Of a stretch of DNA of 64,000 nucleotides, positions 12,001-46,739 are shown piece by piece; position 1 is the first letter of the stretch, and each line of letters opens with the position of its first letter. The DNA comes from Lama guanicoe. Taxonomy: Eukaryota. The stretch covers positions 689,565 through 753,564 of the forward strand of contig MU053823.1 of NCBI GenBank assembly GCA_013239625.1, written 5' to 3'. The translations under genes and the position numbers were made by a program. The notes under the pieces were generated by a model. The model was not told the DNA's origin. It did not search any database and worked only from the letters and a program-made list of their open reading frames with translations.

Positions 12001-15000
12001 TCCCAAGGGATGAGTTGTCAGTAACTTTTACTTTGCCCTCCCTTTTCCACACTGCTGGCAAAACAGTATCACAAGTGCAGTGTTTTGTAAAATTGGTCAT
12101 AATGTCTTAGGTTAAATAATGTCTTAAATAATGTCTTAGGTTTCATTCAAATTCACTTATAACACAAATTTTAAGCATTCAGTTTTGTAATGTTTCCATG
12201 GACATTTGTATCACTAGTTCACATGTCTTTCCTGCATTCCAGTCATATATTCAAATGCATACTCGGTTACACATCTCAGACTCAACGTATCCGAAACTGA
12301 ACTCCCAGTCTTTCTTCCCAGACATGTTCTACCTGTAGCCTTCCTCATCTCAATTATCGGCAACTGCTCTGTTCAAGGTAGAAACCTTGGAGTCATCCTT
12401 GACTTAATCTCTGATTTCTCTCTCTCTTCTGCCTCACATCCAATCTGTTAGAAAATCCTGCTGCCTTTACTTTAAATATATCCACAGTCCAGCCACTTCT
12501 GCTACTCTGTCTTCCTGGTCACCACCATGAGTCTCCTAGATTACTCTTAACTAATCCCCCTGCTTCAGCACATTCCTACACCCCTTCTATTCGCAGCAAA
12601 GTAATCCTTTTAAATAAAAGGGAGGTCAGGTCACACCCTGCTTCAACCTGTAAAGCCTCCTCTTTCACTCAGAGTAAAAGCCAGAGTCCTTCCAGTGGCC
12701 TCCAAGGCTCTGCGTGATCAGCTACTCCCCCACCTCATCTGTCACTTTAATCACCATGGCCTCCTTTCTTTGCACTTGCTGTTTCCTACACCTGGAATGC
12801 TTCCCCCCAGAGATCTACACGGGTAACCCTCACTTCCTTCACATTTTTGCTCACATTTCCCCCTGTAAATAAGCCTCCCCTGACCACCCTCTTGAGTGCC
12901 GCAGCCTATTCGCCTTCCCACTGCCTTCCGCATCGCCCTGTTCTGCCTCTGCATTTTCTTTTTACTTTAAATGCTTACCACTGTCTTAAATATTAATTCA
13001 CTTATTTTTTTTTAAATTATCTATCCTCTGTTAGAATGTAAGCTTCATGAGGGCTTTATTTTGTTCCCTCATGTATCCCAAGCACCTGGAACAGTGCCTG
13101 CAGCTTAATGCACACTCTGTAAATACTGGTTGAATTCAGTGAAAGGTAAAATGTTCAGGGCTTTGGGAAGGCTTCTGTTACCCAGCGTATTTCATTTAGT
13201 GGACTTCGTTGTTCCTTGATCAGTAAAACACTATTATGTAAATTACCATCTGCAGTATGAAAATAGTGTCATTATGATACACTTTTAATTGCTTTCATTT
13301 GTACTTTTACATCTTTTCATTGATGCTTATTGGACTTCAGAATCCTCAAGTGGTAACATTTCTTCTCTGTGCTTTGGACTGTATGTAACGTGAGGCATCT
13401 GTGTAGAGGGGGTCGTGGGCTACTCTTTTTGATTACTTAATAGGTAGAAGGAGTAACGATCCAGAACAGGGAATTAGAAACATGGCAAATGATTATGGGT
13501 AGGTTTTTAGTGTATTAAAGATGTGGATCTGAGGCCTGAGGCTTCCCATTTTCCTACCCTAGGGCATCTGACTGGAAATTAGACCAGCCTGATTGGACTG
13601 GCCGCCTCCGAATCACTTCAAAAGGGAAGATTGCTTACATCAAACTCGAGGATAGAGTTTCAGGTAACTTGTGCTGCTGACCCTCTAACATATTAAGGTG
13701 TTGGTTTGGTGTTCCTTTCAAAGCACCTTCAAACTGGGGACTAGAGGGGAAGTACTTGTTAACTGAGTTTCAGAGTTTTGCTTCCTTTGCTCACAGAAGT
13801 CTTTTTCTTACCTGTCAGGGGAGCTCTTTGCTCAGGCACCAGTAGAACAGTATCCTGGCATTGCCGTGGAGACAGTGACAGATTCCAGCCGCTACTTTGT
13901 AATCCGGATCCAGGATGGTACTGGTAAGGATCAGGGACTTGAGTGGGATGAGCCTAAGGAAGTAGTTCAAGCATTTCAGTGAAGGCGCATCCCCATGCAT
14001 TTATGCCATTTCTGTTTACTAAATTTTCTCCCTTTTCTTTAAATTTAACTATAGTTGCTAAGGGGGAAGGATTAACATGTTGTTTATAATAGATATGAAT
14101 ACAAGTTCAGAATGTGGTATTAAAGATAGATATAAATAAATCAAAATGTATATCTAACCAAAGAATTGACACATACTGCCTGCTGATTGTTTGTGGTGAT
14201 GTTTGCTGGGACTGTCTTAAATCACCTGTGTTTATGGTGATCAGTATCTTTTCTCCATAGTCTGTGTCAGAGGTTGGCAAACTTTTTCTGTGAAGACACA
14301 GATAATAAATATTTCAGGTTTCGTGGGCCGAATGGTCGCTATTGCACCTACTCAGTTCTTTTGCTCTAGGGCAAAAGCTGCCGTGGATAACGAACGCGTG
14401 AACGCAGTGGTGTGTTTGTGCTCCAGTAAAACTTGATTGACAAAAACAAGCTGTGGCAGCGTTTGGCCCGCGGGCTGTCGGCAGTTTGCGGACCCCCGGT
14501 CTGTGAGACAGCGCGTCGCACTCACGGACTTGATCCGGCTAGGGTGACCGCTGTGTTTTCGTTGGGCAGAGTGCGCTGCTGGGTGCTTCCTGCTCTGAGG
14601 ATTCCTGTCTTTCTCACAGGGCGAAGTGCCTTCATTGGCATTGGCTTCTCAGACCGGGGCGATGCCTTCGACTTTAACGTCTCTTTGCAAGATCACTTCA
14701 AGTGAGTGACGCTGGTCCTTAGTTGCCAGGTTAAGTGTTTTGGGACTGCTGCTGCTCAGTTGAGTGGGCGCTCTCTTACCTCCTGGCTTCTTTATTTGAT
14801 AAACTAGTTCGTCACGGACATAGATCTTCCCCTCCACTGTTTTCTGGCACTGTCTTTGTACCCATCCTTTCCTTGTAGCTGGGGTGTGTTTCTGATCCCT
14901 GTGCAGCCGTTGGAGATGATGCCTTTGTTTCTTCCTCTGGAGACGGGCCCTTGCTTCTAGGGGGCAGAGGGGGGCGCGGCAGTACCGCAGGGCTGCGCGT

Positions 15001-18000
15001 GAGCTGTGTGGGGAGCTCTGTGCGTCTTGTGCCCGGGCGGCTGACGCGTCCTGTGCCCCTTGCGGCATTTCTTCAGCCCGTTTGATTTTGGCCTCCCACC
15101 TCGGGCAGGCGTGCCTCTGCGCTTCTGCCTCGGGACTTTCTGACATCGTGGAAGGCCCCCAGTTAGCGAGGGGGCAGCCTGGAAGGACCGAGGAGTTAAC
15201 GGCACCTCGGGGTCAGCCCTCAAGCGCGGGGGTGGGGACTTGTGGCTCGGTGCCCTCTTGGAGGGGCAGGTTTAACCTGCGTCTCGTGTGGTTCCTCGTG
15301 GTGTTGAGCCCGGTTGCCCTCTTTCTTGCTTTCTTTTCTCACGTTTCATGTTCCCTTTCTCTGCTTTCTGGAATCATGTTTCACATAAATTAGCTACATT
15401 CAAATTTGTCAGACCCTATTTTCAGGGAATCCCAATTAAAATAACATTCTCTTTTACTGAAGGTGGGTAAAGCAGGAATCTGAGATTTCCAAAGAGTCTC
15501 AGGAAATGGATGCTCGTCCCAAGCTGGATCTGGGCTTCAAGGAAGGCCAGACCATCAAGTTGAGTATCGGGGTGAGTGTGGTTCCCCCGCCTGTCCTTGT
15601 ATTTCCGTAAGCCGATGACTTCTCTTTTGCTTTCTCTCACTCTCCTCCTTTTTTTCCTTTGTAGAACATTACAACCAAGAAAGGAGGTGCTTCTAAGCCT
15701 AAGACTTCAGGGACCGGGGGTCTAAGCTTACTGCCGCCCCCACCAGGAGGCAGAGTCACCATTCCCCCACCGTCGTCCTCAGTTGCTATCAGCAATCATG
15801 TGACTCCACCACCCATTCCGAAATCTACTCATGGAGGTAGCGATGCAGGTGAGTCTCTCCAGGGCTTTTTAAAAACTTCACCGTTTTTCATTTTGTTTTT
15901 TGGGGGGTTGGTAATTAAGTATTTACTTATTTATCTATTTATTTATTTTTCTAACTGTTTATCTGTCTATTTAACTATTTATCTTGACTGCCTGTCTCTC
16001 TCTCTCTGTTTGTCTATGGAGGTACTGGGGATTGAACCCAGGATCTTGTCTCTACCACTGAGCTAGGCCCTCCCTCCTCTCTAGTGCTTTAACTTTGAGA
16101 AATCATATCTTGGGTTTTAATTGGGTAGCACCCATTTGCCAAGGAAAGTGTTGTGGTTTTGCTATAAATGGGCACTTTGTCCTGACAGGTGATTTTGGCA
16201 GCCTCTAGCGAGGGGTTAAAGCTTTCCTAGGGAGCCGAGAGTCGTGGTTCCTGGTGGGTTCTCTGGCAGGAATTGGGTAGTTAGTAAGAAGGCTGTGTCC
16301 TTCGTGTGCCTTGCTGAAATGCTAGGAGGCCTGAGAGTCAGGCGGACCAAGGTTGTGGTCCTGGTGCTGCTACTTTATGTCTGAATGTGTTTGGTAACAT
16401 CGTTTAAGATCTGTGAGTCTCCACGTCCTTGCCTGCAAGCAGGAGACGTAAAACCACCCCAGGACCGTGAGGGTGGAATGAGGTGACGGCACCGAGCACA
16501 GGGCTTGTGAGGCAGAAGCCATTCAGCACGTGTTGTTTCTTCATCCTTCCCATTTCTCCCCAGGGGCAGTCGAGAGGAAGTGAGACAGCATCTGATTTAC
16601 GAGAACATTTTCATTTTTCCTTACTGTCTGGTGGGATAAAAGAATAGATAAAGTTATTTCCACTTAAAGAATGCAAACCTAGGACTTGGGAGGGAATTTT
16701 CCTAAGATTAGAGAATCAAGCGTTAGAATCTAGGAGTTTTGCCTTTTATCTTTAATTAATTAACTATAATTTAATTTAATGTAACTTAAGGTTTAAATTA
16801 TATCATTAGTCATTTATAATGGATGGCTGAGAGCCAGCTTTCTCTTTCTGGAATTTTTGAGCTGTAAGTGGTTACAGTCTACTTCTTTTGTAAGTGCTGC
16901 CAGAAGGCACTGAGGAGCATATCTAAGATTTATTTATTTACATTTTTTTAATTAAACCTTTTATTTTGAGGTAATTGTAGATTCACATGCAGTTGTAAAA
17001 AAAAATAGTACAAAGAAATCCCACGTACCTTTTACCTCGTTACCCTCAGTGGGACCATTTTGCAAAACTGTGATCGAATAGCCCTGCTAGGAAACTGACA
17101 CTGATACCGTTCACTGGTCTCACTTAGATTTCGTCATCTCTGTGTATTCTCATTTGTGTGTATGTGTATTTACAGCTGACCCTCGAACAACGCAGGGTTT
17201 AGGCACACTGACCCCCACCGTGCAGTCGAAAATCTGTGTCTGACTTCACAGCTGACATCTGCAGGGTCAGCCAGCCACAGATCATGCCATACTGTACTGC
17301 GTGTTTACCGAAAAAAACCCATATATAGCGGACCCCCACAGTTCAAACCCGTGTCGTTCAAGGGTCAGCTGCTGTTCTCTGCAGTTCTGTCGTGTGTGGG
17401 TTCCTGGATCCGCCCCTGTCCCCTTGGTGAGGATGCTGAACAGCTCCACCACTGCAAGGGTCCCTGGTCACCTTTTTGTAACCATACCTCCCCAGCCCCG
17501 TCCCCCCACCCCCAGTCCCTAACCCTTGCTGCTCAGTCACTAGTCTGTTCCCCATCTCTAATTTTGTCCCTTCAGGGCTGTTCTGTAAATGAAGTCACAT
17601 GGCGCATAACCTCTGGGGTTGACTTTTTCCACAGCCTGAGTCCCTTGAGACTCTCGAGTTGTGTGTATCAGCAGCTCGCTCCCGTTGACTGCTGAGTGCT
17701 GCTCCACGCGTGGGTGTACCGCGGTGCCTTCAGTCATCCCCCGTGGAAGAATGTCTGGGGTGTTTCTAGTTCTTGGCTATTATAGATAAAGCTGCTGTGA
17801 ACATTTATGTACAGATTTTTGTGTGAATGTAAGTTTTCATTTCTAGAATTTTTGTAATGTTTCCCCTTTTCTTTTTCCTTTTCTCACCTCGTGTTCAGAT
17901 ATCCTTTTAGACTTGGATTCTCCTGCTCCCGTCACAGCACCAGCAGCAGCTCCAGTTTCCGCAAGCAGCGACCTGTGGGGGGACTTCAGCACCGCACCCA

Positions 18001-18375
18001 GGTATTAGCACAGGGGAGCCAGCCTGCTCCCAGCCACGAATGGGGTCTGCGTGCGGCCAGGTGCAATCTCTGGCGTGGGGAAGCAGAGCACTCGCAGGGC
18101 ATTTGGAGCCTTCGGTAGGAATCCTGGGTGAGGAGGTGGAGGAGCCCCGGGGCGGGGGGATCAGCAGGCTGCAGGGAGAAGCCTGATGGGTGTCTCAGGC
18201 CCAGGTGAGCAGCTGCTGTGAGGTGTAGTTTCAGGGATTCTGAACAGAGATTTCCCGCAAACCTGAAGGAACAGCGTTCCTGTCCTAATACGCCTTTGGC
18301 CTTCTCTCTGTTCTCCTGCCTTGCAGCTCTGTTCCAAGCCAGGCGCCACAGCCATCCAACTGGGTCCAGTTCTGA
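8542..18375 (+). CDS. NECAP1: NECAP endocytosis-associated 1 (adaptin ear-binding coat-associated protein 1), 8 coding exons, 275 aa
   Basis: Exons 8542-8636, 13563-13663, 13819-13923, 14620-14701, 15463-15571, 15665-15848, 17899-18001, 18327-18375. All introns are GT-AG, phases are compatible, total 828 nt. Translation [54 protein letters not shown]...[16 protein letters not shown]...DLWGDF...SNWVQF* shows the PHear domain, KEG motif and C-terminal WxxF motif. Confidence 0.98.
11916..11942 (+). mobile_element. Doubly truncated SINE fragment with target-site duplication
   Basis: CTGGGTTCAATCCCCAGTACCTCCA between perfect direct repeats TTAAAATTTTGGTGTACTTT (11896-11915, 11941-11960). Confidence 0.85.
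12200..13140 (+). mobile_element. LINE-2 3' relic
   Basis: L2 hallmarks ACCTTGGAGTCATCCTTGACT, AGAGTAAAAGCCAGAGTCCTT, TAGAATGTAAGCTTCATGAGGGC, AAATACTGGTTGAAT. Confidence 0.75.
14268..14498 (+). mobile_element. MER58A-like hAT-Charlie MITE
   Basis: Terminal inverted repeats CAGAGGTTGGCAAACT...AGTTTGCGGACCCC with near-matching 8-bp flanks GTCTGTGT / GTCTGTGA. Confidence 0.8.
15885..16075 (-). mobile_element. tRNA-derived SINE (Vic-1-like), internally deleted
   Basis: ATGGAGGTACTGGGGATTGAACCCAGGA...TCTACCACTGAGCTA. Confidence 0.8.
16950..17845 (-). mobile_element. Old LINE-1 3' end (L1MB-like) with nested Tigger-family MITE at 17173-17371
   Basis: L1 blocks (TTGTAGATTCACATGCAGTTGT, AAAGCTGCTGTGAACATT). 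MITE has ~26-bp TIRs CAGCTGACCCTCGAACAACGCAGGGTT / AACCCGTGTCGTTCAAGGGTCAGCTG, preceded by TA. Confidence 0.75.
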
Positions 18376-20020
18376 AAAGCAGCCACAGGACATTAAGGAC
18401 AGACTTGAAGAACAGAGATGACCTGAGGGCGCCAATCTGTGAGGGAAGTTAGGAACCCCTTCCCTCCCCAGAGCCAAAATTACTGGACAATCTTTGTCAC
18501 AGCTGCTCCATTGCGTTCAGGCCGGTTTGTGTCCCTCCCTTACAATCATCCTCCGCTGTACAGCCGAGAAAGCATTTCTTACCTCCTGCTCACTGTCAAG
18601 GCGGGGGAAGAGCAGGTCTTATCGCGCTTGTGGCTGACCGCAGGGCTCGGAGGGCCAGGGTCTCTTTGAGGGGGAATGACCTCTAACATCTGTAACATTC
18701 TTCTCCATCTTTAAATTCATTACCTGATTTTCAGAATCATCTCATGACCCTGTGTGCCTCTTTGTGAAGCCCTGTTTAGCGATTTCAGGGGAGACAAACA
18801 CCTTGAGACCTTCTTTTCCATTAACCCAAGACTCTAAACATGGACAGACCTCAGTGTTTACAGCCTGAGAATTTTGATAGGGGCGGGGATGAACAAAGAC
18901 CCGTTTCCTGGGTCTCTGCCGTATGGCGACCCTCAGGCTCATCCTCTTCGGGGAGCGTCCGGTGCGGGTGCAGCCCCGTTGCCCTCGTGTGCTTACATGT
19001 CTCTTCCTACGATAAGAGGGTTGTGTTTGCTGCATAGTGCACCATCTTTGATCAGCGGGGGTCTCGGATGATGGGGCTTCGAGGGTCTGTGTTTTCCCAG
19101 TTACATTCAGAGAAGCATTTACAGTCTTGCAACTCCGTCCGGCGGCTGCATTTGGAGCACGGCGTTACGTTGTAACAGCCGCATCATCTGACCTAACATT
19201 GAAGGGTTTAGGATTTTTAACCTGATTTGTAGAGCAGAGAGGTTGAAAGCACTTAACTCTTGTTCGGTACCCACATTGCCTTGCTGCCTGAGTATCTGGC
19301 CCCTTTCCATGGACGTTTATTTTTTCAGTCCACTAGCTCCTCAGTGGAAAGCTGCTATGACATGTATTGTCACTTCTGAAGGGAGCTGAAGAGCCATGGC
19401 TTTGGCTGTGATAAGTTTTACCGAAATGATGGCTTTGACACCCAGGGCATCTCAAAGGCAAGTTGCTCTCCCACCACTTTCCCTTCCCCCATCCCACCAT
19501 TCCTTTTACAGTGCTGTGAAGGAGTTCCCGTTCCTAGGTGAATGGGCACCATCTATCTTGTTTGTTAATGGGGAATTTTGAGGGTAAAATGGGAAGACAC
19601 CATTTCTTCCCTTAGCTCGTGTTTGGATGTGTACACCCTGGCTGAAGGGAGTCCTTACGTTTAGTTTCAAAATAGATTCTCTCGCTCTTGGATTTCCTTC
19701 TTGACTCTTTTTAACTTTGGGTCCATTTTTCTTTTTTCCGTTGCTTCCCGTTCCAGGCAGCTCTATTCTTACAGAGCCATGGCAGGACATTTAAAAATTC
19801 CAATAGAAAACACTAAAAGGAAAGTCTGTAGAATCACTAGTGACTAACTACTGGGAACCTATTTTCTCAGCCTTCCTCTATGTTGTGTTCTTTGTATTCT
19901 CAAGATGATAATATATTATGTATTTGAATTGCTGAAAAACTGAAAATGAAGTTTAAGATATATGTATATAAAGCGTATGCTGTATTGGTGCAATAATGGT
20001 AATTAAAAATATGAAAAAAG
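18376..20020 (+). other. NECAP1: NECAP1 3' UTR with candidate poly(A) signals
   Basis: Follows the TGA at 18373-18375. AT-rich terminal block 19780-20020, ATTAAA at 20002-20007, alternative AATAAA at 20107-20112. The true 3' end is inferred. Confidence 0.6.
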
Positions 20021-22152
20021 GTAGTGTCTCTTTGATCTTTTAATTTACCTGTTTCATTACCTTTTTTTAAGGATTTAATTGACCCGATAGAGATGGGCCA
20101 GTAGGCAATAAAAGGACATTTTGTATCTATTACTCTGTTTTAAGAAATAGAGCTTTTAAGAGGTCAGACCTCTGTGCTCATGGTTCTGGGCCCGCAGAGT
20201 GCTCCTTGTGGAGAGCACTTGTATTTATTATTCATTTGCTGGTACAGTTAATTTCATTTGCTTCAAATTATCTTCACAATCTAGGCCGCCTCTCACGTCC
20301 TACTACCCTGCTCAGCGTACATGAGGGGAACAGTGCACGAGGTGGAACTAAAGTGGGAGGCGTGGGCTTTGGAAGCCAGAAGGATCTCAGGATTCTCATT
20401 CAGTGATTGTCACGGAGATGTATCAGAACGATGTATGTTTGTTTGTTTGAATTTAAAGTACCATGTACTGCTCTCTCCAGAGTCTAACTTCCCCCTTGGC
20501 CCTCCCGGGGAAGGACTTGGATGGCTTCCCGACCCGGGACCTGAGGTTGTGAGGCACTGTCACCGACTGGAGCGTATCCTCGACCTCAGGTTTTGTTTGG
20601 TGGAAAATGCAAACAGTGATTTTCCCAGCTCAGCCCCCTCAGTGAGGCTCTGACACCTGCCTTCTTCACGGCTGTAACGTGAGCCCTTACTCCCGCTCTC
20701 GCCTCCGGCCTGATGAGCCAGATAGTCGGCTTCCTCTAGCTGCCCGATTCAGCTTGTGTGTTGCCACCAGAATAATCTCCCTGAAACCAAGCCCTGCTCA
20801 CGCCCCTTCCTCCCCCACTGATTGTCTCATGATCTTCCTTTGCTTGCAGATTAAAGTCCAAAGTACCATTTCATCCTCAACTCTCAGTTTCCCCCTTCAC
20901 TCAGTAGGCTCCAGCGCACTAGGGTGCTGGTCATTCTTCAGGTGCTGCCAGCGCCGTGGGCACTGGATGCTTGCAGTTCCCTCTGCCTAGAATGCCTTCC
21001 CTTTCTTCCCGGCTCATTGAAACTCCCCCACTCCGGGAAAGCTAGCCTAAGTGCTGCGATGCCCGCAGTCTGAGAGATGGTCTCCTTGTTTTGTGTGGGT
21101 TGCTGTTGAAATTCCCTTGCTTAGTAGTTTGTAAGCTCTTTGATACAAGGACCACGTCTTCATTTTTACCTACTCAACAATACTTCCCGTGTACCTTTCT
21201 AGATGGTAGATGCTCCTTAAATACTGGTTGAATTAACAGTGATTTCAGCGGAGAGAGACTGGAAATGAGTAAGCTGGGTGTTTTCCTTTTATTACTCAGC
21301 CTCGTTTTGGTTGTTCCTAGCTGCAGGGCGGAAGTACCCCTCATATGCTTTGTCATTGTTGCAGAAGGTCTCATTTATATACTCCAGAGTCAGTGAACAT
21401 TCGAGACCAAGAGAGGAGTGATGAAGACAAATTTTACTTTGGTCCATAGACCCTATGGCCTGAGAAAAGGAAAACGGGGCATCATGGAGCGCAGCGGCTG
21501 ATAAATTTGGTAGCTTACTATCTCACTGTGATGATCACAACTGGCTAAGATTACAGTGCACTCTGGTTATGTTTTAGTTTTTCCTTTTCTTTTTTCTTTT
21601 TTTATAGTCATTTCTGTTGCTGCCTCTTAACTGTACATGAGGAAAATACATACGGTCTGTGACTGGAGACCTCATCCTTGGGAGCTCCCCAGTAGCCACA
21701 TGCTCTTTTGAGAAGGAAAGGGAAAAGGGAGAATTACATTTACTCGCAGGTCCCCGAAGCCTGGGGAATGGGTAGGCTTCTTACGGTTTTCACAGCAACC
21801 GTGGTTGAAACCACATGGCATTTACTTCAGAATTTTGCAAGAATTGTCATTTTCAGCCCCTTTTTGAAAGTTATCAAGATACGGGGGGTGGCATGTTTTG
21901 TAAAAAGCTCTAGTATACTCGAATTGCCTACCTCTGAGTCAGGAGTAAAATTTATCCACTGAGACCTCTTGTCAAGCTAAGATTACTGTCACCCCGTAAG
22001 TTAAACACAATAATGCACTAACACCCCCTATGGATGTTTTTGCTTGCTTTTCACAGTTCTCTTTTTTCTTACTATGTGTGCTCTAGTGCTGCACCTATGA
22101 AAGGAAGAAAAGAAGGTCATTGAATCAGTTTCTGGTGCATAGCCGCATGGGA

Positions 22153-22166
22153 CCACTAGAGGGCGG
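22153..22166 (+). promoter_or_regulatory. CTCF core motif with upstream-module-like sequence
   Basis: CCACTAGAGGGCGG preceded by TGCATAGCC, within a locally CpG-retaining patch. Confidence 0.65.
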
Positions 22167-22604
22167 GCTCCCCCGCAACTCCAGCGCAGCCTAGGAAATA
22201 CCGCTCAGCTTTCCCGGCTGGAGAGGCACAAATTTTGCTCTGCCGCTTATTGGCTTTTTGACCTTGGACGACGTAACTTTCGTTTGCCTCAGATTCCTCG
22301 CATTGCAAAATGAAGATCAGAGTTTCTACTTTATAGAGTAATTGTGAGAATAAAATAAGCTGAGAAGCCCTCCTTCCCTTTCTACCTACCTATCTCTATC
22401 ACAGTATTGTGTGCTGATAACACTTTAACTTTGATTGCATACAAAAAATTTACCCTTTGTATTCCTCCTTTTGTGTTTCTTTCTTTTTTTTTTTCTTTTT
22501 GCCCATGAAGTTGATGTCGTCTGGTTCCCACCTCTCTGCCCTTTATTGTCACTTTTTTTTTTTTGCCTATAGAGTCTGTAAATCTGTTCATTATATATAT
22601 ATTT

Positions 22605-22935
22605 TGTGGGGGGAGGGGAGGAAAGAAAAGAGCAGCTTTATTGCCTTGCCTGGCAAAGGGAGTCACAGCAGGCTAATGCCTTAGAGACTGTGAGCCCATC
22701 TTAGGATTGGGGTCTTGAGAGGTTTTATAGAAAAACTGGACGGAAGAGAAAAGGTGATAACAATCAGGGCGTTTTACAGGGAGCGCCATTCATCTTAACT
22801 TCCATGGATCTTCAGGAGGAACTCCGGAGGGTCTGTCCATTCTTCTGAGATTATCAGCCTGTTTCTTCCTCCCTGGAGCAGAGCCTCTGGGTGAATGTTA
22901 TCCTCAGTAAAGACTGAATCAGAGAACAGTTTTGC
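22605..22935. mobile_element. ERV LTR fragment
   Basis: AGCAGCTTTATTGCCTTGCCTGGCAAAGGG...GGCTAATGCC resembles recalled ungulate ERV1-type LTRs. Confidence 0.45.
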
Positions 22936-23889
22936 ATCAGGGAAGTCTGTTTGTTCATTATATTTTTAACCATTACTCTCTAAAGCTTATCAAAGTAATT
23001 AGAGCAATTTAAAATTCAAATAATCCCAGAAGGTTTATAACTGAAAATTATGGAAGTCTTGATTATTATTCTTTGTGGGAGTTTAATGGAGGCATCATAA
23101 ACCAGCAATGGAAAAACAGAACAGTTTTGATTCTTCCAATAACTGATATCAACTTATCCCTCTTTTTAAGAGCAGGGTCAGAGGAAGAACAATATGGCAG
23201 TTGGTTTTCTTAGTTCTTTTCAATAAACACCAGTCTTTTCCAATAACTGGCTGTCAAGTCCAGCCTCTGGAATGCCAGCCCGAGGGCCTGTCAGGGCTGC
23301 TGATGCTGCCCCGTCTGCTTGCCTGCCACACTTCGTGGGCTTCTGCCTCTTGGGAGCACCTGGTGTCTGTGTTGTGTGCTCTCTGTGCGCGCAGTTCCGG
23401 CCCCTGCTCCGGGTTATGATGGGCCCGCACACAGCGCCCTCTCGTCTCCATTCAGTGATTCTATCTCATCCCTTCTGGATATGTTCCTTCCTCTTTAACT
23501 GAGGTGTCTCTCACAAGCTAGACCACTGACACCTCTTTTTGATCATCTCAGTGTCCTCGGTACCTCCTACCAGGAAGCATTTCTAAGTCCCTTTCTTGCT
23601 CTCCTGGAACAGGGGGTGGTAAGGGTCTCAGGGTCTGTCACTATTGCCATCTCAGCACAGGGCACTTCTCGGAGCATCAAGCCAGGAGAAACCCCACTGA
23701 GAATGGGTGCTTCGCCTTGCGTTCCAGATTTACTCAACTCTCCGAGAAACTGATTGCAGCAATAACTCTGATTGGTCCACACCTTCTTGTAGAATTTGTA
23801 GCTTCTACACTGACCCTGGGCTTGACAATGAGAAATGCTTTGACCAATGAAAGACAACCTAATGTGAAGCAAGCCCAGGTCTGAAACAT

Positions 23890-24186
23890 GCGTGTGCACT
23901 GAACTTGCCCTCTAGCTTCTCCTGGACCCCTGCTGGAGGATGGAGGCCACAGGGAGCCGACGTCCGCTGTCCCAGTTGGGGTCATCTTAGCTGCGTGCAT
24001 GTCAATCTGGCATCTGACCATAGAGACATGAGCTGAAATCAGCCACACCTGACTCAAACCAGAACTACCCAGCTGAGCACAGCCTAACTTGCCAAACTCT
24101 CAGGAATTTGAGCTAAATAAATTCCACAAATGGTGGTTGTCTTAAGCTACCAGGATTTGAGATGGTTAGCAAAAGGTAATTGATAC
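23890..24186 (+). mobile_element. MaLR (MLT1-type) LTR 3' part
   Basis: CCAGAACTACCCAGCTGAGCACAGCC...TAAATAAA...GGTTGTCTTAAGCTAC...TAATTGATAC. Confidence 0.65.
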
Positions 24187-31250: not shown

Positions 31251-31703
31251 AAATATAATATTCAGGAAAAGAAAACCTTGAGGAAAATTCTGTTTTTTAT
31301 TGGGTTCAATTATTATTCTTTTAGGGCACTGCTAAATTTTTTGTTTGAACGACTAAAAACAAATTAAGAAATTTTACATGACACATTGGTCTGGTTACCT
31401 CAACGTACTTGTGAAAATTTCTACTGTTTCTGAGTGTTGCTTTCTCAATTTCCCTTTTCCTTTGCTCCAAACCAGAGTGAATCAAAGGAAACCTCAGTCT
31501 TTGAAAAGACTTCTTCTTTTCAGTTGTCTTTTATACGGGAATGTTCTAGTCTTACCAGAATAGGTAAGCTTAATGTTCAACCTCAAGAATTTCTAAATGT
31601 ATGTATGTTTTATTCACAGAAATATACCCTGTGGAAAAAATATAAACAGCTGCTCAGGCTACTGGTTCTCCCAACTACTGGACCATAAGAGATTTAGCAC
31701 ACA

Positions 31704-34700
31704 GTAGGGCAAGAAGAACCACAAAATAATCGTGAGTACTTTTTCCCCTTTCAAGTTTAACGAGGGCATACTTGATTATGACAAATATTTTAAAATATGA
31801 ATTGATGACAGTTGTAGTTGTGAAGATTGAAAGATGATGGGGAAAAAGAGGTTGAGGGATGTGAAAATGATTTTGGTAAAGAGGAAGGACTTAGATTCAT
31901 ACATTTGGAGTACCAGTAACTTGTTTATGAAATGTAAATTGGGGCAAGAGAGGAGAGAACGTCTGTAAAAATAAGATGAAAAAAAAGAAAGTTGGGAAGA
32001 TTCTTTTTAAGGGAAGAGGGAGAAGAAAGATACAGAAAACACATTGGCTGAGGCAGCAGTGTGTCTGAGGCTCTTACTTCATCTTCGTTTATGTTTTACT
32101 TAAGTGAAACAAATGAATTTGTATTATAAGAACATTAAAAAATAGCTTTGAGAAATATATAGAATGAATGCAGAAATATGTAATTTAAAAATTAATGTTT
32201 CACTTCATCGCATTACGCCACCCAAATTTCATTGACATCATGATGTACAATGGTCCTGAAAACCACCTTTTTGTGTAACAATATGCTTGGAGATTTTTTT
32301 TTGCCAGTACATACACATATAGTTGATTATCTTAATTGCTGTATAGACTTCCATCATGTGGATTCACCATAATTTAGAATCTCTGTTCTTGATGGTACGT
32401 ATCCAACTATTAGATTCCAGGGATTTTTTTTTCTATTTCCAAAATTACTGCAATGAATATTCTTTTTATAAATAAGTTATTTCTATAGGGTGGATATCTA
32501 GAATTGAAATTATGGCAAGTGTAATGCATTTAAAATTTGATAACTGGGGGGAGAGTATAGCTCAGTGGAAGGGTGTGTGCCTAGCACTGGGTTCAATTTC
32601 CAGTACTTCCACCAGAAATAAATGAATAAAAACATAATTACCCCCCCAAAACCCCCAAAATAAAAACAAAAACCAAAAAAAGAATAAAACAAATGCAGTA
32701 CTTTAAAAAAATTGATAAGTGCTTCTAACTTGATCTGTCTAAAAAGCTTTCTAATTTACTATTCAGCAGTGACATTTATTTCCTTACTGAGTGTTTCCCT
32801 CTGTCTCACCAATACTATGTATTTTCAATTTACTTTAAAAATTCTGATATATGAAAAATCACACCATAATAATATTTTGGTTTACATTTCTCTGAGCACG
32901 CTTCTTGTTTGTTTAATGGATTTTTAAAATAATTTCAGCAAGTTAGATTTTCAGCAAATTTCCTGCTCAAATGTTTTGCTCAGTTTTCAAATTGTTTTTT
33001 GAAATTCTTTATACAGTCTGGATATTAATATTGTGACAAGATTTTTCTTTCATATATTCCTTGTGTTTTAACATTATTTGTGTTATTTAGAAGTTTTGAT
33101 TTCTATGTCCCCAAATTATCAATATTTTGTGATTTGGGGGTTTTGAGTCTTGGTTATAAAAAGCCTGTCCTTATTCAAAAACTCAAAAAAGTTGTTTACG
33201 TTCTTCTTATTTCTTCCTTATTCATCGGTGAGCTCTGAAATTGATTTATTTAGGAAAAATCTTTAAGCTCTCCTCCAGATCTGAAATATTTTGGACAATC
33301 CATCCTTAGTTTGCTCCTTGGTAGAATTTACTTCCCTGGTTCTGGTAGCTAAGAACGAGACAAGCTAGTTCTCTTGTTTTTGTACAGGAGGAGGCGGCCA
33401 GCACCCCCGGCTGATCCCTTGGGCCATGGCTACTGTTCTCATCTCACTTCTAAGTGCCTGTTTTATTGCAAATTGTGTGGGTAAGTTATTAGCAAAAGTG
33501 GAACTCTCCTTGAATTATTTACCCGAGCAACTTTTATAAAGTTGCTCTGAATCTTTTGTTATCTTGATTTTCTCCCACATATCAATCTGTAATGATTTAA
33601 AATTCAGGGTCTTGGATTTAAAATTCAGAGCTACATGCTTGACCTTCTGTTCTTTTATGATGCTGCTTTGTATCAGGCAATGAAAGATGGAATTTAGACC
33701 CTTTTCAATACATGTGAAGGTTGGTGACCGTTATTAAGTGGTAAAAGTGAAGCAGAGCACAAAGTACTTTAAAAGCCATGGCATGGTTACCTTTAAGAGA
33801 AAGGGTGGGAGTTGAGTTTGGGCTCCGACAGCCACCTGGGGTGTTGGCAACACTGTGTTTCCTGAGCCCATCATTTTTACCCGGAATACTCGCTTTACAA
33901 TAACTTGATAAACTGTACACTTATGATTTCACTTCTTTAGATTTGGTTATATTCCAAAGTAAAAATATTTAAAAGATAAATAAATGTGTCAGGCTCATAG
34001 AACTTTGCAAGACTATCCCAGTATTCACCAAAAATCTCCACTCTAACACAAATTCTGATGGGAAAAGATGCTTAAAAGCACACGCACATGAAGGTTTGCA
34101 AAACTACCCCCACAAAGCACAGAATGGACCATGTGATGTGAAAAATATTAATCTTCAACAATTCCTCTCAACCAATACATCTGGAATGGGGACAAAGGAG
34201 CTGCGAGGGAAGAACAGAGAACGTGGGGGCTTTACTAGGGCAAGAGCAAGTTTAGAACAGTTGGCCCCGTTTCCCTAATTGAGTCATTTTATAGGGAAAA
34301 AAAATTAAGTTTTCTTCCTCCTCGACAGTGACTTATCACAACATTCTACGCTGTGAGAGAGTCTCGGGGGTGTTCAAGCCACCAAAGTACTACCCAAGGC
34401 TGACATGTGTCGCAGGGAAATCAGCACTGAAAGTTACAGGTAACAAGGAGCAAAAGAGAGTTTCTTTCTTATTTCTATTTCCATTCACATTCATAATCTG
34501 ATTTAAAATAATTTGTTAATAAGCCCGAGAAATTAAAATAACGTAAGATGAGAATCTGGCATGAGAGTGAACACCAGTAAATTGAGACAGAATTCTTCCT
34601 CATGATATAATCAGTGGAATGATTAACTGGAGAACAGAACACATTTACGGGCCCTTTTTGGCATCAGAAACATAGCATCAATTCCATTTTCTTTTCAGTC

Positions 34701-36899
34701 AGATATAGCATAAGGACTGTTTCCTCTGAGAATGTATAGCTTTGCCAAAATGTCTGTATCTCCTTTATTATTCTGGAGTTTGTAAAGGCTCGTTTGGGAG
34801 AATGAGGGGAAGTGCACGAGAGTTTTAGCAGGTTCTTTGCCTCCGTCAGACAAGATGTCCTGCAAGAGGCTTTATTATGGAAACACTTTAAATGTGATTG
34901 TAAATGGATGTAAGGACTGAAAAATGACCATGCCTTCTGAGAGAACAGCCTGTAATTTTCTCACAGTCGCTATGTGATTCAGATACTTTTGTCTAGAAGA
35001 TATTCAGAAATGTAATTTTCGGGATTTTTTAAGGGTGGACAGAGTGATTTCAGTAATCCTGGTTTTATCCTCATAAATGTTAATCGGACATGAGGCAGTG
35101 GAATAGTTATGCAATGTGCTACAGATGATGTGCTCCTGTGCAACTATTTTTATTTCGATTCTCACAGGAGAGGGAGCCTGGCATTGCTGCCCTGCTGGCT
35201 GGCGAGCCTTTCAGTCCAGCTGCTACGTTCCACTTACCGACAACAAGACGTGGGCTCAGAGCGAAAGGAACTGTATAGGGTTGGGGGCTCACCTGGCCAC
35301 CATCAGCACAGAAGCTGAGCAGGTCTGCTGGGAGGCGCACATCAGTTTCTCTGCTGGTTTGAATCTCTTTGCAGAGAAGGAGGAATTTCTCTGCTCTGCT
35401 GTGCCTGTGTGCCTTTGCTTCATCTATTCCATCCACCTGGAAAGACCTTCCTTCCTCTCTCACTTCTCTTCTTATGGCCAACCTCTTCTGGTCTTCCATG
35501 ATTAGATTCATGCATTATTTCCTCCAGAAAACTACCCGACCATCCTCCCTACCCCATCCGCCCTGTTCTAATTTGGAGCCCCTCCCGGGGTGCTCTGTGC
35601 ATCGTGGGAGCGTGGCCCTTGCTCCAGCGTGTGCAATCGTCCTTTCGCTACTCCAGCTCTTCCAACGACTCCTCCTCTGTGGAGGGCTGGAGCCACGCCT
35701 CACGCATCTTTGCATCTCCAATGGCCTGCACGGTGCTAGGCACACTGCATAGATCTTAATAAATGTTCAGTGGTAAGTAAATAAATGAATGATTCATCAG
35801 GACTGAAATGGCTTCTCAGGATAAAACACAGGAAAAATAATTCAAGTGTATGGTTGTCATTCTAAAAAAAAAATCTCAAGGTAAATTCAATTCTGAACTG
35901 AAACTTATTTCCTCATGTAATATATTTCCATGTCCGTGCCAGGACTCAGATTCCACTCCTTTCTTGGTTAGCAGGGTTTCCTGGATTCCGTGTTCATGGC
36001 TTTGTGACCTACAGGTTCACCAACTCTTTGAATAAAAAGGAATTTAATGAAATACACGGTTAATGAAGGCAATTTTAAAAACAAAAGTTCCTAAAAATCC
36101 AACCCTGTTAAGCACTGGGCTAAGTGACTTGAAAGCTGAGCTCAATCTTGCACAGCAATTCTGTGAAGCTGCGGCGTTGTCCCTTTTGGAGCTGAGAAAA
36201 CTGGGGTTTGGTGAAATTAAAGCACTGATTAATAGTACACGATGAATGTCAGAAGCAGATTTGAAAACAGACCTGGTGCCAACGCACTGGTGCTTAACGA
36301 GTAATTTATTTGATCTCTTTCCTCTTTTTCTAACATAACAGCTTTCCCGTGGTAAATACAAATATACTTATAATAATTCACATTTTTATACAGAACTTTA
36401 TTACTCAGTTTTTGGATAAACGGTTTTCCTATTTCCTGGGACTCACAGATGAGAACCTTGAAGGCCAGTGGCATTGGGTGGACAAGACACCGTTCAACCC
36501 ACAGATGGTGTGAGTATACAGACTGGGGTGAAGGAGCTTTATAGGCAAAGGTGAGAAGACAGCAAGGGGAATTCATCCTGGGGGAGCACACCCCCGTAAG
36601 GAAGACTGCTCAGAACAGAGCACTGTGTGCTGAGTGGCCGCCACACCAGGATGCAGCTCGAAACTGTTCCCCAGGAGCACTTTCCTTGCTTTGCCCTCTG
36701 CCCTATTTTACACACACACACACACAATTTTTTTCATTCCAGATTCTGGCATGAAGGTGAACCCAGCAACTCTCAGAGAGAAGACTGTGTTGTCCTTGTT
36801 AATGACCAAGACAAATGGGCCTGGAAAGTTGTTTCTTGTAACGTTGAGACAAGTAGGATTTGCAAGATACCTGGAAAGGATTCAGCTAGAAACCTGTGA
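31704..36899 (+). CDS. CLEC4D: C-type lectin domain family 4 member D (MCL/Dectin-3) orthologue; canonical start lost, probable start at 33426 (about 197 aa), or incipient pseudogene
   Basis: Exons 31704-31731 ([11 protein letters not shown], donor GTGAGT), 33388-33480, 34329-34439, 35168(or 35171)-35322, 36394-36509, 36743-36899, all GT-AG and in frame. [35 protein letters not shown]...[83 protein letters not shown]. Lies tail-to-tail with CLEC4E as in other mammals. Confidence 0.9.
32546..32712 (+). mobile_element. tRNA-derived SINE (Vic-1-like)
   Basis: GGGGGGAGAGTATAGCTCAGTGG...GGTTCAATTTCCAGTAC; degenerate TSD AAAATTTGATAA / AAAATTGATAA. Confidence 0.85.
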
Positions 36900-38614
36900 A
36901 GGAGTCCTTGTGATGAGGACAGGAAAGAAGAACCAGTTAGTCTAGGGCAGGATGTTCGTGTGTCACTGGAACGGAGACAACATTCTGGGTCATAGAACAT
37001 TTGCAGCCGTGATGGCCGTATTTATTTTTGTTTAATTCATTCAAGATGTGTTTTTGTGTAAGTAATCATTTTTTAGATCTTTTTTTTCTACAAGGATCAG
37101 TTTTATCAACTTTGCTTTCTTGAGAGTATTTCAAGGTATTTACTTTTCAATTGGCGTGCATTGATTACATACCTAAGAGGGTTTGAATGGTGCAGTCGCC
37201 AAGTCATTGTTTCCTCTGCCCCCGTTCTCAGCTCTTAAAATTCAAAGGTGGACTATTTCAAGTGGTAGTGGTGTACCGTTTTTTTTTAAACCCAAATATC
37301 ACAAACCCTTTAAAGGTTTTAAACATTTTTATTGTTTGATGCTTCATTTCAGACTTTTTAGTAGTATCAGTCATTAGATTGACAACCCATGAGCAAAATA
37401 CTTTCGGAACAGCAGGATAGTATAGTTGGAATTATGGTATGGCTCAGGTAAAAAACAAAATCTATTTGCCTTTCAAAAAAATGTACTTCTTATTCTACTC
37501 TAAACGTCTTCCCAGAGCAGGGGGTCTCAAGCTGACAATTTCCTTTTGAGTGGAAAAGTTCCTTACAGGCCACCGTAGCTCCTCCTGTTGTATAGCTGAG
37601 GGAATGAAACCCTTGGGAAGCCAAAGGGCTCTCCTTCTCTCAGCTAGTTCATGATAGAAACAGGATTATGGCTTAGATGTATCTTGCATAGCAGGTGAAA
37701 TGTATTCACTTTGACATTAGGGGAAAGTCACTGGGGGTGACATGGCCTCTTGGCCAATAGATAGATAATAGCTCTTATTTATTCATGTAACATCGTATTA
37801 GTGTTTCTATACTTTTAATTGGAATCAGAAAAAAAAATTTCAACCCATTTAGGTGAATTGTTAGCATGTTTCTTTAGAGCTATAAAGCTATGGTTTAAAC
37901 TAGCAAGGAAGTCCTTTTCACAAACTGAAGTTATGCTTTTGTGATGTATGTGGTGTTAATTGTGATGCAGTCACATCCAACATCAACAAAATATGGTGGT
38001 TCTTTCTTAAAATTTTCAGTTTGCTGATGTTTCCTGCATCTAAGCTAAAAAAAATTGCAAGTGACAACTTTTTAACCTAACTTCCTTACCACTGTCTTCA
38101 AAAAACAATACTGATTTTTTATAAATTAGTGATTTTCTGAGTCTGGAATATTAACGTTTGATTGGTTGTGTGTGTGTGTGTATGTATTTAAAGCAGTACC
38201 AAGTGACTTTGTGTTTGCCATAAATTACACAGCACAAATCTATAAAACTTGTTGAAATAAATTTATGTAAATGATAGTAGGCTTTGTATAGCTAATATTA
38301 CCCATTTTTAGTTTGTATAAACTGTATTTAGGTAAAGGTTCAGTTGTCAATAAAATGTGGCCTCTTTGTGACTTTATACACCTGTGTCTACATCCATACT
38401 TCTAGCCTATTTCTCCCAATGTTGACCATTTTTCATTCCCTCCAGTGGCTACCGCCACAGACCAAACTACCATCTCTCCTACCTGCATTATTGCAACAGC
38501 CTTCTGGCTGGTCTCCCTGCGTCCACCCTTGCTCCTTTTCAGTCTATTCTCAACTCTCATGGCAACTCTACCATTCTTCCAGTTTCTTTACGACAGCTGA
38601 AGTAGCACCAAGTG

Positions 38615-42251: not shown

Positions 42252-45200
42252 TCAATTATTTCTTTCTGGCATTTCACAAATCCAATACATACTGAAGAAA
42301 CAGGTTACGTCATTCCAACTTTGCTTCGGGTTTGAAGAGTCTCTTATGGTGGCACAGTCCTCCACTGTAGCTATGTTGTTGGGCTCCCCTATGTCCCAGA
42401 AGCTGAAAGAGACACGGGAGATTTACAGGAGGTGAAGGGACCCATTTACGAGCCAAATCCCATTTGTGTTATTTAACATCACAACAGTTTGTGAGGTAGG
42501 TAATATAATCTCCTCTTTATTGATGAAGAAAAGGAATCTCTGAGGAGCTAACCAGTTTCTCTATGTCATAGAGTTTGTGAGTAACGAAGCTGATCTGGGT
42601 CTTTTTAACTTTGTACTCTGAATCGGTCCCTCGTGGCTTTAGACCCAGAATGATATGTTATGGGACAGACTGGTATCCTGATGGATTTCTTTCCTTCACA
42701 CTCATATCTCCTACGACATTTGGCCCCCTTTATTCTACAGAGTTTGCCTTAACTGAGGTGCATACGTCAGTGGTGTTACAGTGCTGGAGTGAAACAACTC
42801 TTTAAAGGATCAGAGCCTCCTACTTTTACACCGTAAGAATCTCTTATCTTTCTCAAGTCACTGCTTTTGTCTCATTTACTACAGTTTGGGGGCATAAGAC
42901 CCTGCATCGCACCCTTTGCCTCTCCTGCATTTCCAGTGAATTAGTGTTCAGTTCCAAGCCCCTTCTCATTTTCGTCTGTTATTTCCCATTCATTCTTGAG
43001 GGAGTTCCAGGAAATGGGGGAAGCAGACCCTGATGCCTCTCTTTTCCCTCTTCCTCATCAGCTCTTTCCCTTCTTGCAACTAGTATCACCATGGGTGGGC
43101 ATGAACATACCTCCTGGAACGAAGGCTGTTCCGAGAACTCCCGTCAACTGCAGGCTAACATTAGGATTTGGGGCAATGTTACAGTTCTCCTACAAGAAGG
43201 AAATTACCTGAGATCCTTTGTGAAAGGTGTACCATCTACCCACTGCCACTGACCCTCGGTCACCTGGTCCGTCAGTCCAATATAAAACTCTTTCTTTTTA
43301 GGTTTTGTAAGGAAAAGGAATTCCTATGGAAGATACATACAAAAATTAGGAGATCCATTATTCCAGTGCTGAACAAATGTTGAAGGTAATTGTTATTAAA
43401 AGAGAGAAGGTAGGATCTGGACCAGAGATGATAGAAAAATGGGCCTGAAATTGTAAGATCATGGAAGATTATCTCCTGATTTGTTTTATTGTGCTAAAAC
43501 ATATGTACCCTAAAATTAAACCAATGAAAAAGAACCATCAGCAGAGAAGGAGGTTCTCAATAACTCATTCAAAGTTTATCTACTGTTATTGACAACACAA
43601 AACTTTATAAATCAGAACTTAAAGATAATAGACAATTTTTGCTCGCTGTCTTTCATATGACATGTTCATAAACATAATGGTCATTCTAAAATGAAGTCCC
43701 AGCCCTCTTTTTTTCCAGGCTTACTAATAAATGAGCTGAATGTGGGAATTTCATTTTTTTAGTTTCTTCTAGTAGTGAAAATATATTAAAGTTGGTATTG
43801 ACTTACAGAAATAGTAAGACCAGCATGTATTTCAGTAAATTTTTTTTAACACATAGTAATTGTATGCCCAATACTGGACACGTGACTGGAAAACAAGATG
43901 GCTCCTGTGACGGACACTGGAGGAAGCTGTACTCTCATTACCTGCTCCTCTAGCGAGTTGATAACCACCAGATGACTCCCCATGCTGGAGCAGTTTTTTA
44001 AACTTGCTGTCCAGGTCATGGTGTCAGTAGAAAAGAAGTAACAGCTAGACTGAAAATGCACCCAGTTCAATGGACAGCACTTCTTCAGTGAACCTGGAAG
44101 GAGAGAAGTTTCCGTGAGAGCCCCACATGAACTGGGTAAGACAACAGAAGCCTTCTTCGGGGCCAATAAAGCTCATCATTTACAGTCAGAAGTCTTGGAA
44201 CCCCTCATTCATGCCCCATAGCTCACCGTCTAAGACTTGTAGTTAAGTCCTATGTCAACAAGCACAGACAGCAATTTTCTTTTTTTTTTTTTTGAGACAT
44301 AATCCTTATTTTCCAGATGTCAGTGCCAAACACAACCATACATACAATCTGCCTCGGTTATGCTATTGGTATGGAACCCTATTATCTGTTCACAGACTGC
44401 CAAGGTCAGAGAAGTTTATGCATTTTATCTGAGTGACCTGTAAGTAACCATCTCTCGTGTTGGCCTATCAATGTACCCTCAACAGAATCTCCAAACTGCT
44501 TGTCCAGATGGGATCAAGTTCTTAGAATGATAGCATTTAAGCCTTTGAAGTTTCTTAAAAATAAATTGTCCAATCTCTCTTAACTTAATGGTGAGGACAT
44601 TATAGCCCGGAGAAGGAAGTCATACTCCAGTCTCATGGGGCATTTTGTAAGGCTTGGAACAAGACTACGTGGAAGAGTTTAGGGGTATGCTTCTGAGGTA
44701 TTTCCAAATTTCCTCCTCTGTGCTTTTTTTTTCCAAGCTCATTTTGGAAGCAGGTGATGAGTGAAAAGAAAAAGGGTACCACTGGGAATGACAGCTTCCT
44801 CTTCTAGATTTATTGTTCAGACATATAACTCAAATTTATTCTAAAAGTTTGCTATAATGTCCCCAAGAATTCCTGTCCCAATGCTAACTGACTTTCCAAA
44901 GTTCTAATCCTGTCCTCTTCCCAACTCCTCATTATTCTCTGACAGTACAGGCAAGATTTTGTATTTTGCTTTTGAAAAACAGAACCTAATCTGATTACTT
45001 TACTTATCCCCCAAATCAATCTAGAAACCAGAAAACGTTGATATGTAAATTTTGATGTCCAAACTTGAGGGCTATTATACTTGATCCATCATTATAGCAG
45101 GAGAGCTCCATTAAATCCTCACGCGGCTGGACCTTTTTCCCATCACAAAGTTGAAAGATGTGATACGTCACTGTAAGGAAAGGAGCACAGTTAGTGTTCA

Positions 45201-46739
45201 TTTCTCTTGAAAAAAACACATTTTATCATTTTTGTTGCCATAACAAATGTACTAATAATTATATTTTCTTACTGTCTACTTTTCCTCCAGCTTGGAGAGG
45301 AGATGAGATTTACTTACCCAAAGAAGGAAGAGGGAATTCACACTTCATGGTTTTCCTGATTTATGAAAATGAATATACTTTATTTCAGGCCCAGAGGCCC
45401 AAAGAAAACAAATGTGTTTGCAGTCTCTCTTATGCCAAGTCTAACCTCCCAACCCTTCCTTCCAAAAAGTGATTTGTTGTGTCCCTGGCTAAGATGTCAT
45501 ACAGAAGGTTACACTAATGATAGGGCTACAAAGGCAGAGGACTCAGGGCCACTAAGGAGGTGGAAGATGTGTACCATGAAAAATGTGTCTCAGGTCATTG
45601 AAATTTGGTAACAGCTTTGTGCTAGCTGGAGTTTCTGGCTTGAGGAATAACCTGGAGATAAATAAGGGGAAAAGTGGAACAGAAATACCCTTTGTGGGAG
45701 GAGGGAACCCATAGGCAACAAGGAAGAATTTACTCCTAATATTCACCAGGGAGACTGAATTTGACCTTCAGAACTCACCAACACATCTGGCGATAAAACA
45801 GACACTGAGCAGTAGGATGGAGACCCCAGCAACAGTCCATAAGAACACCTGGGAAGAGAAGCATCCATTCTCTGCAGAAAGACACAAACATGGTCAGTCT
45901 TCCCTAGGAAGATACAAAAGAGATGTAAGAAATTCGTATTCAACCTTGCTGGTTTCCTTCTACTCCCTTTGTCTATATTGAGTAATTCTCAAACTTCGGC
46001 ATGCATCAGAATCATTTGGAAGGTTTGCTGAAACACAGGTCATGGGGTCTCACGTCCAGACTTAAATATTCATTAGAGCTGGTATGGAGCCAACAAGTCC
46101 CCAGGAGCTGCAGATGCCGCTGGTCTGGGGATCACACTTTTAGAACCGCTCAAATAATCCATCCCTGCTCTTAAGACTCTGACTCATGAACACGGGCAAA
46201 TGTGCAGTTCTTCCTTTCTAACCCTCTCAAATTTTTTCCTCCCATCTTTCCCTATCTTTCTCTCTCCCTTTCTCCATCTCCCTCTTCCCTGCTTTTCTTG
46301 CCTGTCTCCTGTTCTCCTCTTTTCAGTGTCTCCTCTTCCAAGCCCTTCGTAAATCAATCAGATAAAACATTAACCATCTAGAAGCTCCTCTCTTGCTCCC
46401 TTCCAATATGCATTTTACAGACGAGGAGAGCAAGTTCCAGAGATGTGAGGTGACTTGCCCAGTGGGACACAATAAACTATACAAAGGGTAGAAACAGCAG
46501 TCAGGTAGCTCTCCCTGAACTCAATCTCCAGCAACCCCTCCTATGTTTCACTTAGTCTTCTAACCATTCCCTTATTTTCCTTGCTTTCATTCTCTGTCTC
46601 TGTTGCTCCTGCTTTACTTTTCTCTTGTCCTGTCCTCAGCATATCCATCATCCCTTCCAAAAAAAGGATCCTTGAAAGAAAAGGGATAGTTGCAAAGTTT
46701 ACCTGTGCGTTGGGATGCTGATGATTTGGACGAGTTCAT
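42252..46739 (-). CDS. CLEC4E: C-type lectin domain family 4 member E (Mincle), 6 exons, 212 aa
   Basis: Minus-strand exons 46739-46703, 45871-45779, 45170-45081, 44093-43942, 43323-43208, 42402-42252; total 639 nt. [52 protein letters not shown]...[16 protein letters not shown]...[55 protein letters not shown] and the transmembrane Arg41 used for FcR-gamma coupling are intact. Confidence 0.97.
45982..46150. mobile_element. MER5A-like hAT MITE in CLEC4E intron 1
   Basis: TTCTCAAACTT..GCATCAGAATCA...GCTGGTCTGGGGATCACACTTTTAGAACC. Confidence 0.7.

Follow-up and report, generated by a model that had tools for sequence, protein, structure and literature searches.

Here, we describe CLEC4D, the gene of the type II C-type lectin MCL (also named CLECSF8 or Dectin-3), in a 64,000-nucleotide stretch of the Lama guanicoe genome (assembly GCA_013239625.1, contig MU053823.1, positions 689,565 to 753,564 of the forward strand). 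This whole stretch is called the window, and all coordinates are given on it. We found no stop, frameshift or lost splice site in CLEC4D across its six exons. Its first codon, however, reads GTA in place of ATG, and the first ATG encountered after it lies in codon 23, at the beginning of the membrane anchor. The features of the locus are collected in Table 1.

Table 1. Features of the CLEC4D locus and their coordinates in the window
Feature	Position	Strand	Basis or remark
In-frame stop codon TAG, 9 bases upstream of the lost initiator	31695..31697	+	Sequence, with the frame taken from the six-exon model
Start-loss allele (derived), with GTA in place of the initiator ATG of CLEC4D	31704..31706	+	Sequence; contigs of DNA runs; camelid proteins
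Exon 1, coding part (28 bases)	31704..31731	+	Followed by donor GTGAGT; predicted to be 5′ untranslated in the start-loss allele
Exon 2, end of the tail and hydrophobic membrane anchor	33388..33480	+	AG/GT borders; tblastn, 100% to alpaca P0001 residues 11-40
ATG in GGGCCATGG, predicted start of a 197-residue product	33426..33428	+	List of ATGs in the spliced sequence
Exon 3, stalk	34329..34439	+	AG/GT borders; tblastn to alpaca P0001
Exon 4, C-type lectin domain (first part)	35168..35322	+	AG/GT borders; protein match to CLEC4D
Exon 5, C-type lectin domain	36394..36509	+	AG/GT borders; tblastn to alpaca P0001
Exon 6, lectin domain (end), stop TGA at 36897-36899	36743..36899	+	AG/GT borders; tblastn to alpaca P0001
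Out-of-frame upstream open reading frame, 36 codons	31597..31707	+	List of open reading frames; horse P0101 aligns in the same frame (E 4e-7)
CLEC4E (Mincle), partner of MCL	42252..46739 (approximate)	-	Open reading frames with Mincle-like anchor and lectin exons; tblastn

Joined together, the six exons of CLEC4D form 660 bases, or 219 codons with a single terminal TGA, and all the introns are of the GT-AG type. Such a six-exon structure is the one described for the genes of the Dectin-2 cluster (PMC3406680). The coding exons from the second onward all map by tblastn to the alpaca model P0001, the per-exon identity to alpaca CLEC4D being 98-100% with the exception of exon 3, and residues 2-10, which are encoded by exon 1, are identical to those of P0001. 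The gene identity proposed in a first-pass annotation of the window is upheld by exon 4, the translation of which is 100% identical to CLEC4D of Vicugna pacos, a match that carries PF00059, and 94% identical to that of Camelus dromedarius; the named matches to this translation, at the top of the list and below, are all CLEC4D of mammals. Finally, we saw no second copy of the gene, as exon 1 occurs a single time across the whole 2.05-Gb genome assembly.

The loss of the initiator codon can be read directly in the sequence. Positions 31704-31731 are GTA GGG CAA GAA GAA CCA CAA AAT AAT C, followed by GTGAGT, in agreement with the first-pass annotation, which had described a 28-nucleotide coding part of exon 1 ending at this donor, GTA at 31704 where a methionine is expected and an in-frame TAG at 31695 that blocks any upstream start. 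Because of this TAG, no start is possible further upstream within exon 1. GTA was also considered as a start codon in its own right and rejected, since it stands two mismatches away from AUG and does not qualify as a near-cognate start. The tail codons and a type II anchor devoid of charged residues are present, but a tail led by Met1 is not, codon 1 being GTA. In an alignment of CLEC4D proteins, Met1 is found in each of the three camelid sequences and in 54 of the 57 orthologues from non-camelids. Moreover, of 49 columns with a conservation of at least 90% across 57 full-length non-camelid orthologues, the window protein deviates in one, and this column is residue 1. The locus is a CLEC4D orthologue, yet its GTA allele cannot encode the canonical protein.

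We compared the window over 31500-37000 (5501 bases) with contigs from four publicly available DNA runs, labelled X1 (organism A), X4 (organism B), X7 (organism C) and X12 (organism D). The contigs of X1 (depth 34) and X12 (depth 6.8) agree with the window at 31704 and 31706 and read GTA. Those of X4 and X7 (depth 11.7 each) carry A at 31704 and G at 31706, that is ATG, together with A at 31658. As X1 differs from the window by 14 letters and 4 gaps over the 5501 bases, X1 and the window represent distinct haplotypes; X4 and X7 show 32 and 31 letter differences to the window, respectively. These contigs bear on the possibility of a sequencing or assembly error in an animal that truly carries ATG, which could be suspected from the fact that both changes fall in one codon of a draft assembly made up of 55,231 contigs. 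The presence of GTA in the contigs of two further runs, which come under two organism labels and from two studies, and each of which differs from the window elsewhere, refutes such an error for practical purposes and leaves it hardly any probability.

Retrieved camelid proteins indicate the direction of the change. All seven (two alpaca models, two from C. ferus, one from C. bactrianus and two from C. dromedarius) begin with Met and continue with the same residues as those that follow GTA in the window. As this holds for both alpaca and Camelus, GTA is the derived state. It is a genuine, derived allele rather than an assembly error. The first-pass annotation had stated that CLEC4D has lost its start codon. 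The loss is real in the window and recurs in X1 and X12; ATG in X4 and X7 and Met1 in all seven proteins of the relatives restrict it to the state of an allele or of a lineage.

With X4 diverging by about 0.6%, a given codon would be expected to contain two differences with a frequency of about 1/10,000 if these were independent. The paired change in codon 1 is probably due to one multi-base event, or to a second hit that occurred once the codon was already dead. With regard to its distribution, South American camelids are described as forming a guanaco/llama and a vicuña/alpaca lineage, between which introgression has been heavy and recent (PMC7331169). Because of this introgression, GTA is possibly typical of one lineage and yet found across organism labels. 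For the variants listed at 31569 and 31704, all four combinations are seen, bearing in mind that contigs of diploids can switch phase.

The window protein and the alpaca model differ at two residues, 61 (Tyr/Cys, position 34389) and 199 (Ser/Ala, position 36834). Among the runs, the variation at 34389 and 36834 is independent of the organism label; residue 61 is Cys in all four of them and Tyr in the window and in Camelus. This pattern fits shared polymorphism or introgression. We also observed that the Camelus ferus and bactrianus models P0052, P0054 and P0056 have C-R-P where the lectin domain begins and that alpaca, dromedary and the window have C-C-P; the replaced Cys is conserved in the other orthologues viewed.

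With codon 1 lost, the question is where translation could start. In the spliced sequence taken from 31640 onward, the ATG at 33426 comes first, whatever the frame, and it is in frame with CLEC4D. Its placement by the first-pass annotation in exon 2, at the start of the membrane anchor, was confirmed, as was the frame behind it, which is open to the terminal TGA with AG/GT exon borders. The same annotation had called its context a perfect Kozak sequence. Indeed, this ATG is the first in frame and its context, GCCATGG, is strong, with G at -3, CC at -2/-1 and G at +4, but the full consensus is not reached, positions -6 to -4 being TGG.

We examined codon 23 and the tail in 80 CLEC4D representatives whose N terminus is canonical. 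At codon 23, Met is found in all seven camelid proteins and in none of the 73 proteins from other mammals, which carry I, F, V, C, L, T or S. As Met23 is common to alpaca and Camelus, it predates the start loss; the back-up ATG is older than the split between Old and New World camelids, and did not arise together with the lesion. All 80 canonical tails contain between one and five Lys or Arg residues.

A tailed receptor might still be produced if an alternative first exon or an upstream start supplied an in-frame ATG, or if initiation took place at a non-AUG codon before the anchor. Predicted isoforms from elsewhere in mammals do join other N-terminal exons to exon 2 (for example P0022, P0069, P0070 and P0087), and an in-frame CTG is found 5 codons ahead of the ATG at 33426. 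We consider such a rescue very unlikely. When the alternative N-termini of seven mammalian models were searched against the window with tblastn, nothing convincing was found upstream (best relevant E value 0.07), and all seven camelid models use the same exon 1. As for the CTG, its context has C at -3 and A at +4, and the strong AUG follows 15 bases downstream; GTA, as seen above, is not a near-cognate codon. The sole good match among the alternative N-termini, that of the predicted horse isoform P0101 (Table 1), corresponds to the out-of-frame upstream open reading frame. Its stop codon, TAG at 31705-31707, is formed by the GTA allele only, and this reading frame is relevant only to transcripts that begin upstream of 31597.

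CLEC4D lies beside CLEC4E, as in the Dectin-2 cluster, and the two genes are arranged tail to tail. The ATG of CLEC4E, at 46739, is intact and its product has an Arg within the anchor. From its sequence, the locus can be recognised as the camelid MCL/Mincle pair. No exon of CLEC6A (Dectin-2), the upstream neighbour of CLEC4D in human, was found in the 31 kb upstream of CLEC4D using tblastn with two CLEC6A proteins. This upstream stretch includes a GC-richer block at 8000-24000. Finally, intron 1 of CLEC4D harbours a tRNA-derived short interspersed element (SINE) at 32545-32640, the family of which must be very abundant as the summed contig depth reaches 8,000-37,000 in the four DNA runs.

Altogether, we propose that a derived ATG-to-GTA change has removed the initiator codon of a camelid CLEC4D and that translation likely begins at codon 23, to give a protein of 197 residues that lacks the 22-residue tail; we regard this proposal as evenly balanced between right and wrong. 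A scanning ribosome that meets no earlier AUG from 31640 on would initiate at the AUG at 33426. As the frame and the stop codon in the last exon are unchanged, nonsense-mediated decay of the message is not expected. The 197-residue product would open directly with the 19-residue apolar anchor, both arginines of the tail being gone. In this product, the top 19-residue hydropathy window covers residues 1-19, with a mean of 2.23. The net charge of the N-terminal flank falls from +2 to nothing, and that of the C-terminal flank amounts to +1 when 15 residues are counted and to +4 when 25 are. Provided that translation starts at 33426, as we infer, the protein begins with an apolar segment that no positive residue precedes. 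A (-3,-1) scan points to candidate cleavage sites after residues 10, 11, 12, 17, 20 and 27. The product would enter the endoplasmic reticulum with its lectin domain in the lumen, and then either be released upon cleavage by signal peptidase, or be retained, rather than be displayed normally at the surface. By analogy with the systems considered below, release or retention of the tailless MCL is the likely outcome. A tailless or secreted MCL, or alternatively an early pseudogene, had been suggested by the first-pass annotation.

Start-loss variants that are rescued by a downstream in-frame AUG are a known general class, in which an N-truncated protein is produced instead of none. The CLEC4D allele resembles this class in that the protein would be truncated at its N terminus, and differs from it in that the whole cytoplasmic side of a signal-anchor would be removed. 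The main question for the MCL truncation is one of topology and release, not of activity. The start loss coupled to a downstream in-frame AUG is a well-known lesion, and its occurrence in CLEC4D is a new case, not a new kind. Our literature searches for CLEC4D in camelids, and for CLEC4D together with pseudogene and start codon, found no paper.

The closest precedent is given by corin. Corin with the initiator Met as its entire tail is reported to be absent from the cell surface (PMC11756421, Li et al. 2025). In the same report, mutants that lack the arginine at the border of the anchor are N-glycosylated and secreted, likely after cleavage by signal peptidase (PMC11756421); as they are N-glycosylated, these charge-loss mutants keep the type II orientation. 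Like the predicted MCL, the corin mutants are type II proteins in which Met alone precedes the anchor or the positive residue at its border is gone. They differ from it in being engineered forms of a protease with measured outcomes, whereas the MCL truncation would be natural and is predicted from sequence. A role for the N-terminal charge is also described for an invariant-chain hybrid, in which the signal-anchor function is set by three segments, the positive N terminus being one of them (PMC2115136).

Deletions in the asialoglycoprotein receptor H1 are comparable in another respect: H1 is, like MCL, a type II C-type lectin, and its signal-anchor was moved to the N terminus by deletion of the cytoplasmic domain. 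In 1988, Schmid and Spiess reportedly observed that the H1 signal is cleaved after N-terminal deletion. CLEC4D (MCL, Dectin-3, CLECSF8) of other mammals has much in common with the camelid gene, namely six exons, a type II C-type lectin as product, a position beside CLEC4E, a short tail without signalling motif and an uncharged anchor. The camelid GTA allele differs in that its sole available start drops the entire tail. No natural tailless form was found among 118 representative CLEC4D proteins.

Several points weigh against a tailless MCL that is released or retained. First, contigs reveal the presence of an allele and neither its zygosity nor its frequency, and the count is small, GTA being seen in two of the four runs in addition to the window. 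Second, H1 with four N-terminal residues left is described as glycosylated and membrane-bound in the type II orientation (PMC2139883, Wahlberg and Spiess 1997). As this form of H1 remained anchored, contrary to what release of MCL would require, a tailless and yet anchored MCL is possible by analogy. Third, when their N-terminal charge is reduced or their C-terminal flank more positive, long apolar N-terminal signals are reported to insert partly in the inverted orientation (PMC2139883). If the analogy holds, such an insertion can put the lectin domain of MCL in the cytosol. The candidate cleavage sites, moreover, come from the bare small-residue (-3,-1) rule. Finally, the X7 contig, in which the ATG is kept, has an extra A behind 34339 in exon 3, predicted to cause a frameshift at codon 44 and a stop at residue 50 (single contig, depth 11.7); it hints that CLEC4D may simply be decaying in this group.

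This last observation leads to the strongest rival explanation, in which GTA marks a plain null allele at the onset of pseudogenisation. The message would be silent or poorly translated, or the product degraded, and the open frame would only reflect how recent the lesion is. We consider this explanation possible, if somewhat doubtful. Indeed, the haplotypes are 0.25-0.6% apart over 5.5 kb, so that the allele is young and its open frame is uninformative on constraint. Other possibly damaging variants exist in the related runs: besides the X7 frameshift, a C>G change at 35244 in exon 4 of X4 (single contig) results in N103K and the loss of the sole N-x-T sequon. Outside codon 1, three of the five coding differences listed are residue-changing and two are silent, these differences being too few for a ratio of nonsynonymous to synonymous rates (dN/dS). 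Losses of members of this lectin cluster are also on record in other mammals, rat Dectin-2 being described as a pseudogene (PMC10234441).

In line with a null allele, neither a Lama protein nor an N-truncated camelid form, such as one of 197 residues, was found in the protein collection among 109 near-length matches, 5 shorter ones and the cluster members (6 + 1); the close relatives present in this collection are all NCBI models of alpaca and Camelus. The RNA runs X16-X20 and the presumed RNA run X15 contain 5-23% of the sampled words, a word share that is no evidence of expression.

A null allele is, on the other hand, less easily reconciled with the remaining features of the gene. The first AUG from 31640 on combines the correct frame with a strong context, and protein should follow if the gene is transcribed. 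The window is free of stop, frameshift and splice-site change, and none is present among the differences listed for X1 and X12. Besides residue 1, all the highly conserved positions (49 columns) are kept. Furthermore, the X7 insertion is supported by a single contig. If GTA proves to be a simple null allele of low frequency, it would be an ordinary loss-of-function variant.

Our proposal of initiation at codon 23 has consequences for MCL, which, in mouse and human, is described as forming a heterodimer with Mincle that senses mycobacterial cord factor (PMC11624271). Each of the two proteins is reported to support the other's expression at the surface (PMC11624271), and the transmembrane and cytoplasmic part of CLECSF8 to be sufficient for signalling (PMC3406680). 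Because of this sufficiency and this mutual support, a phenotype is expected from the loss of membrane MCL, and the GTA allele would act as a hypomorph or as a loss of the membrane form that pairs with Mincle. In line with a role in defence, higher M. tuberculosis burdens are described in MCL-deficient mice, and a human CLEC4D polymorphism has been linked to pulmonary tuberculosis (PMC11624271, PMC4334100).

We can go one step further and speculate that the ancestral camelid Met pre-adapted MCL, and that the start loss of the llama/guanaco type has turned it into a decoy lectin for cord factor or for Mincle, released by signal peptidase. We hold this extension to be unlikely; if true, a soluble decoy MCL would retune anti-mycobacterial inflammation in these camelids.

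The GTA allele provides a clean natural test of what becomes of a type II lectin when its entire cytoplasmic side is removed. As some South American camelid genomes carry the start-loss allele and others lack it, these animals would offer a ready comparison with and without normal membrane MCL. Camelids are also widely immunised for the production of nanobodies. The finding would be of relevance to the mycobacterial diseases of llamas and alpacas and, possibly, to adjuvant responses in animals immunised for this purpose.

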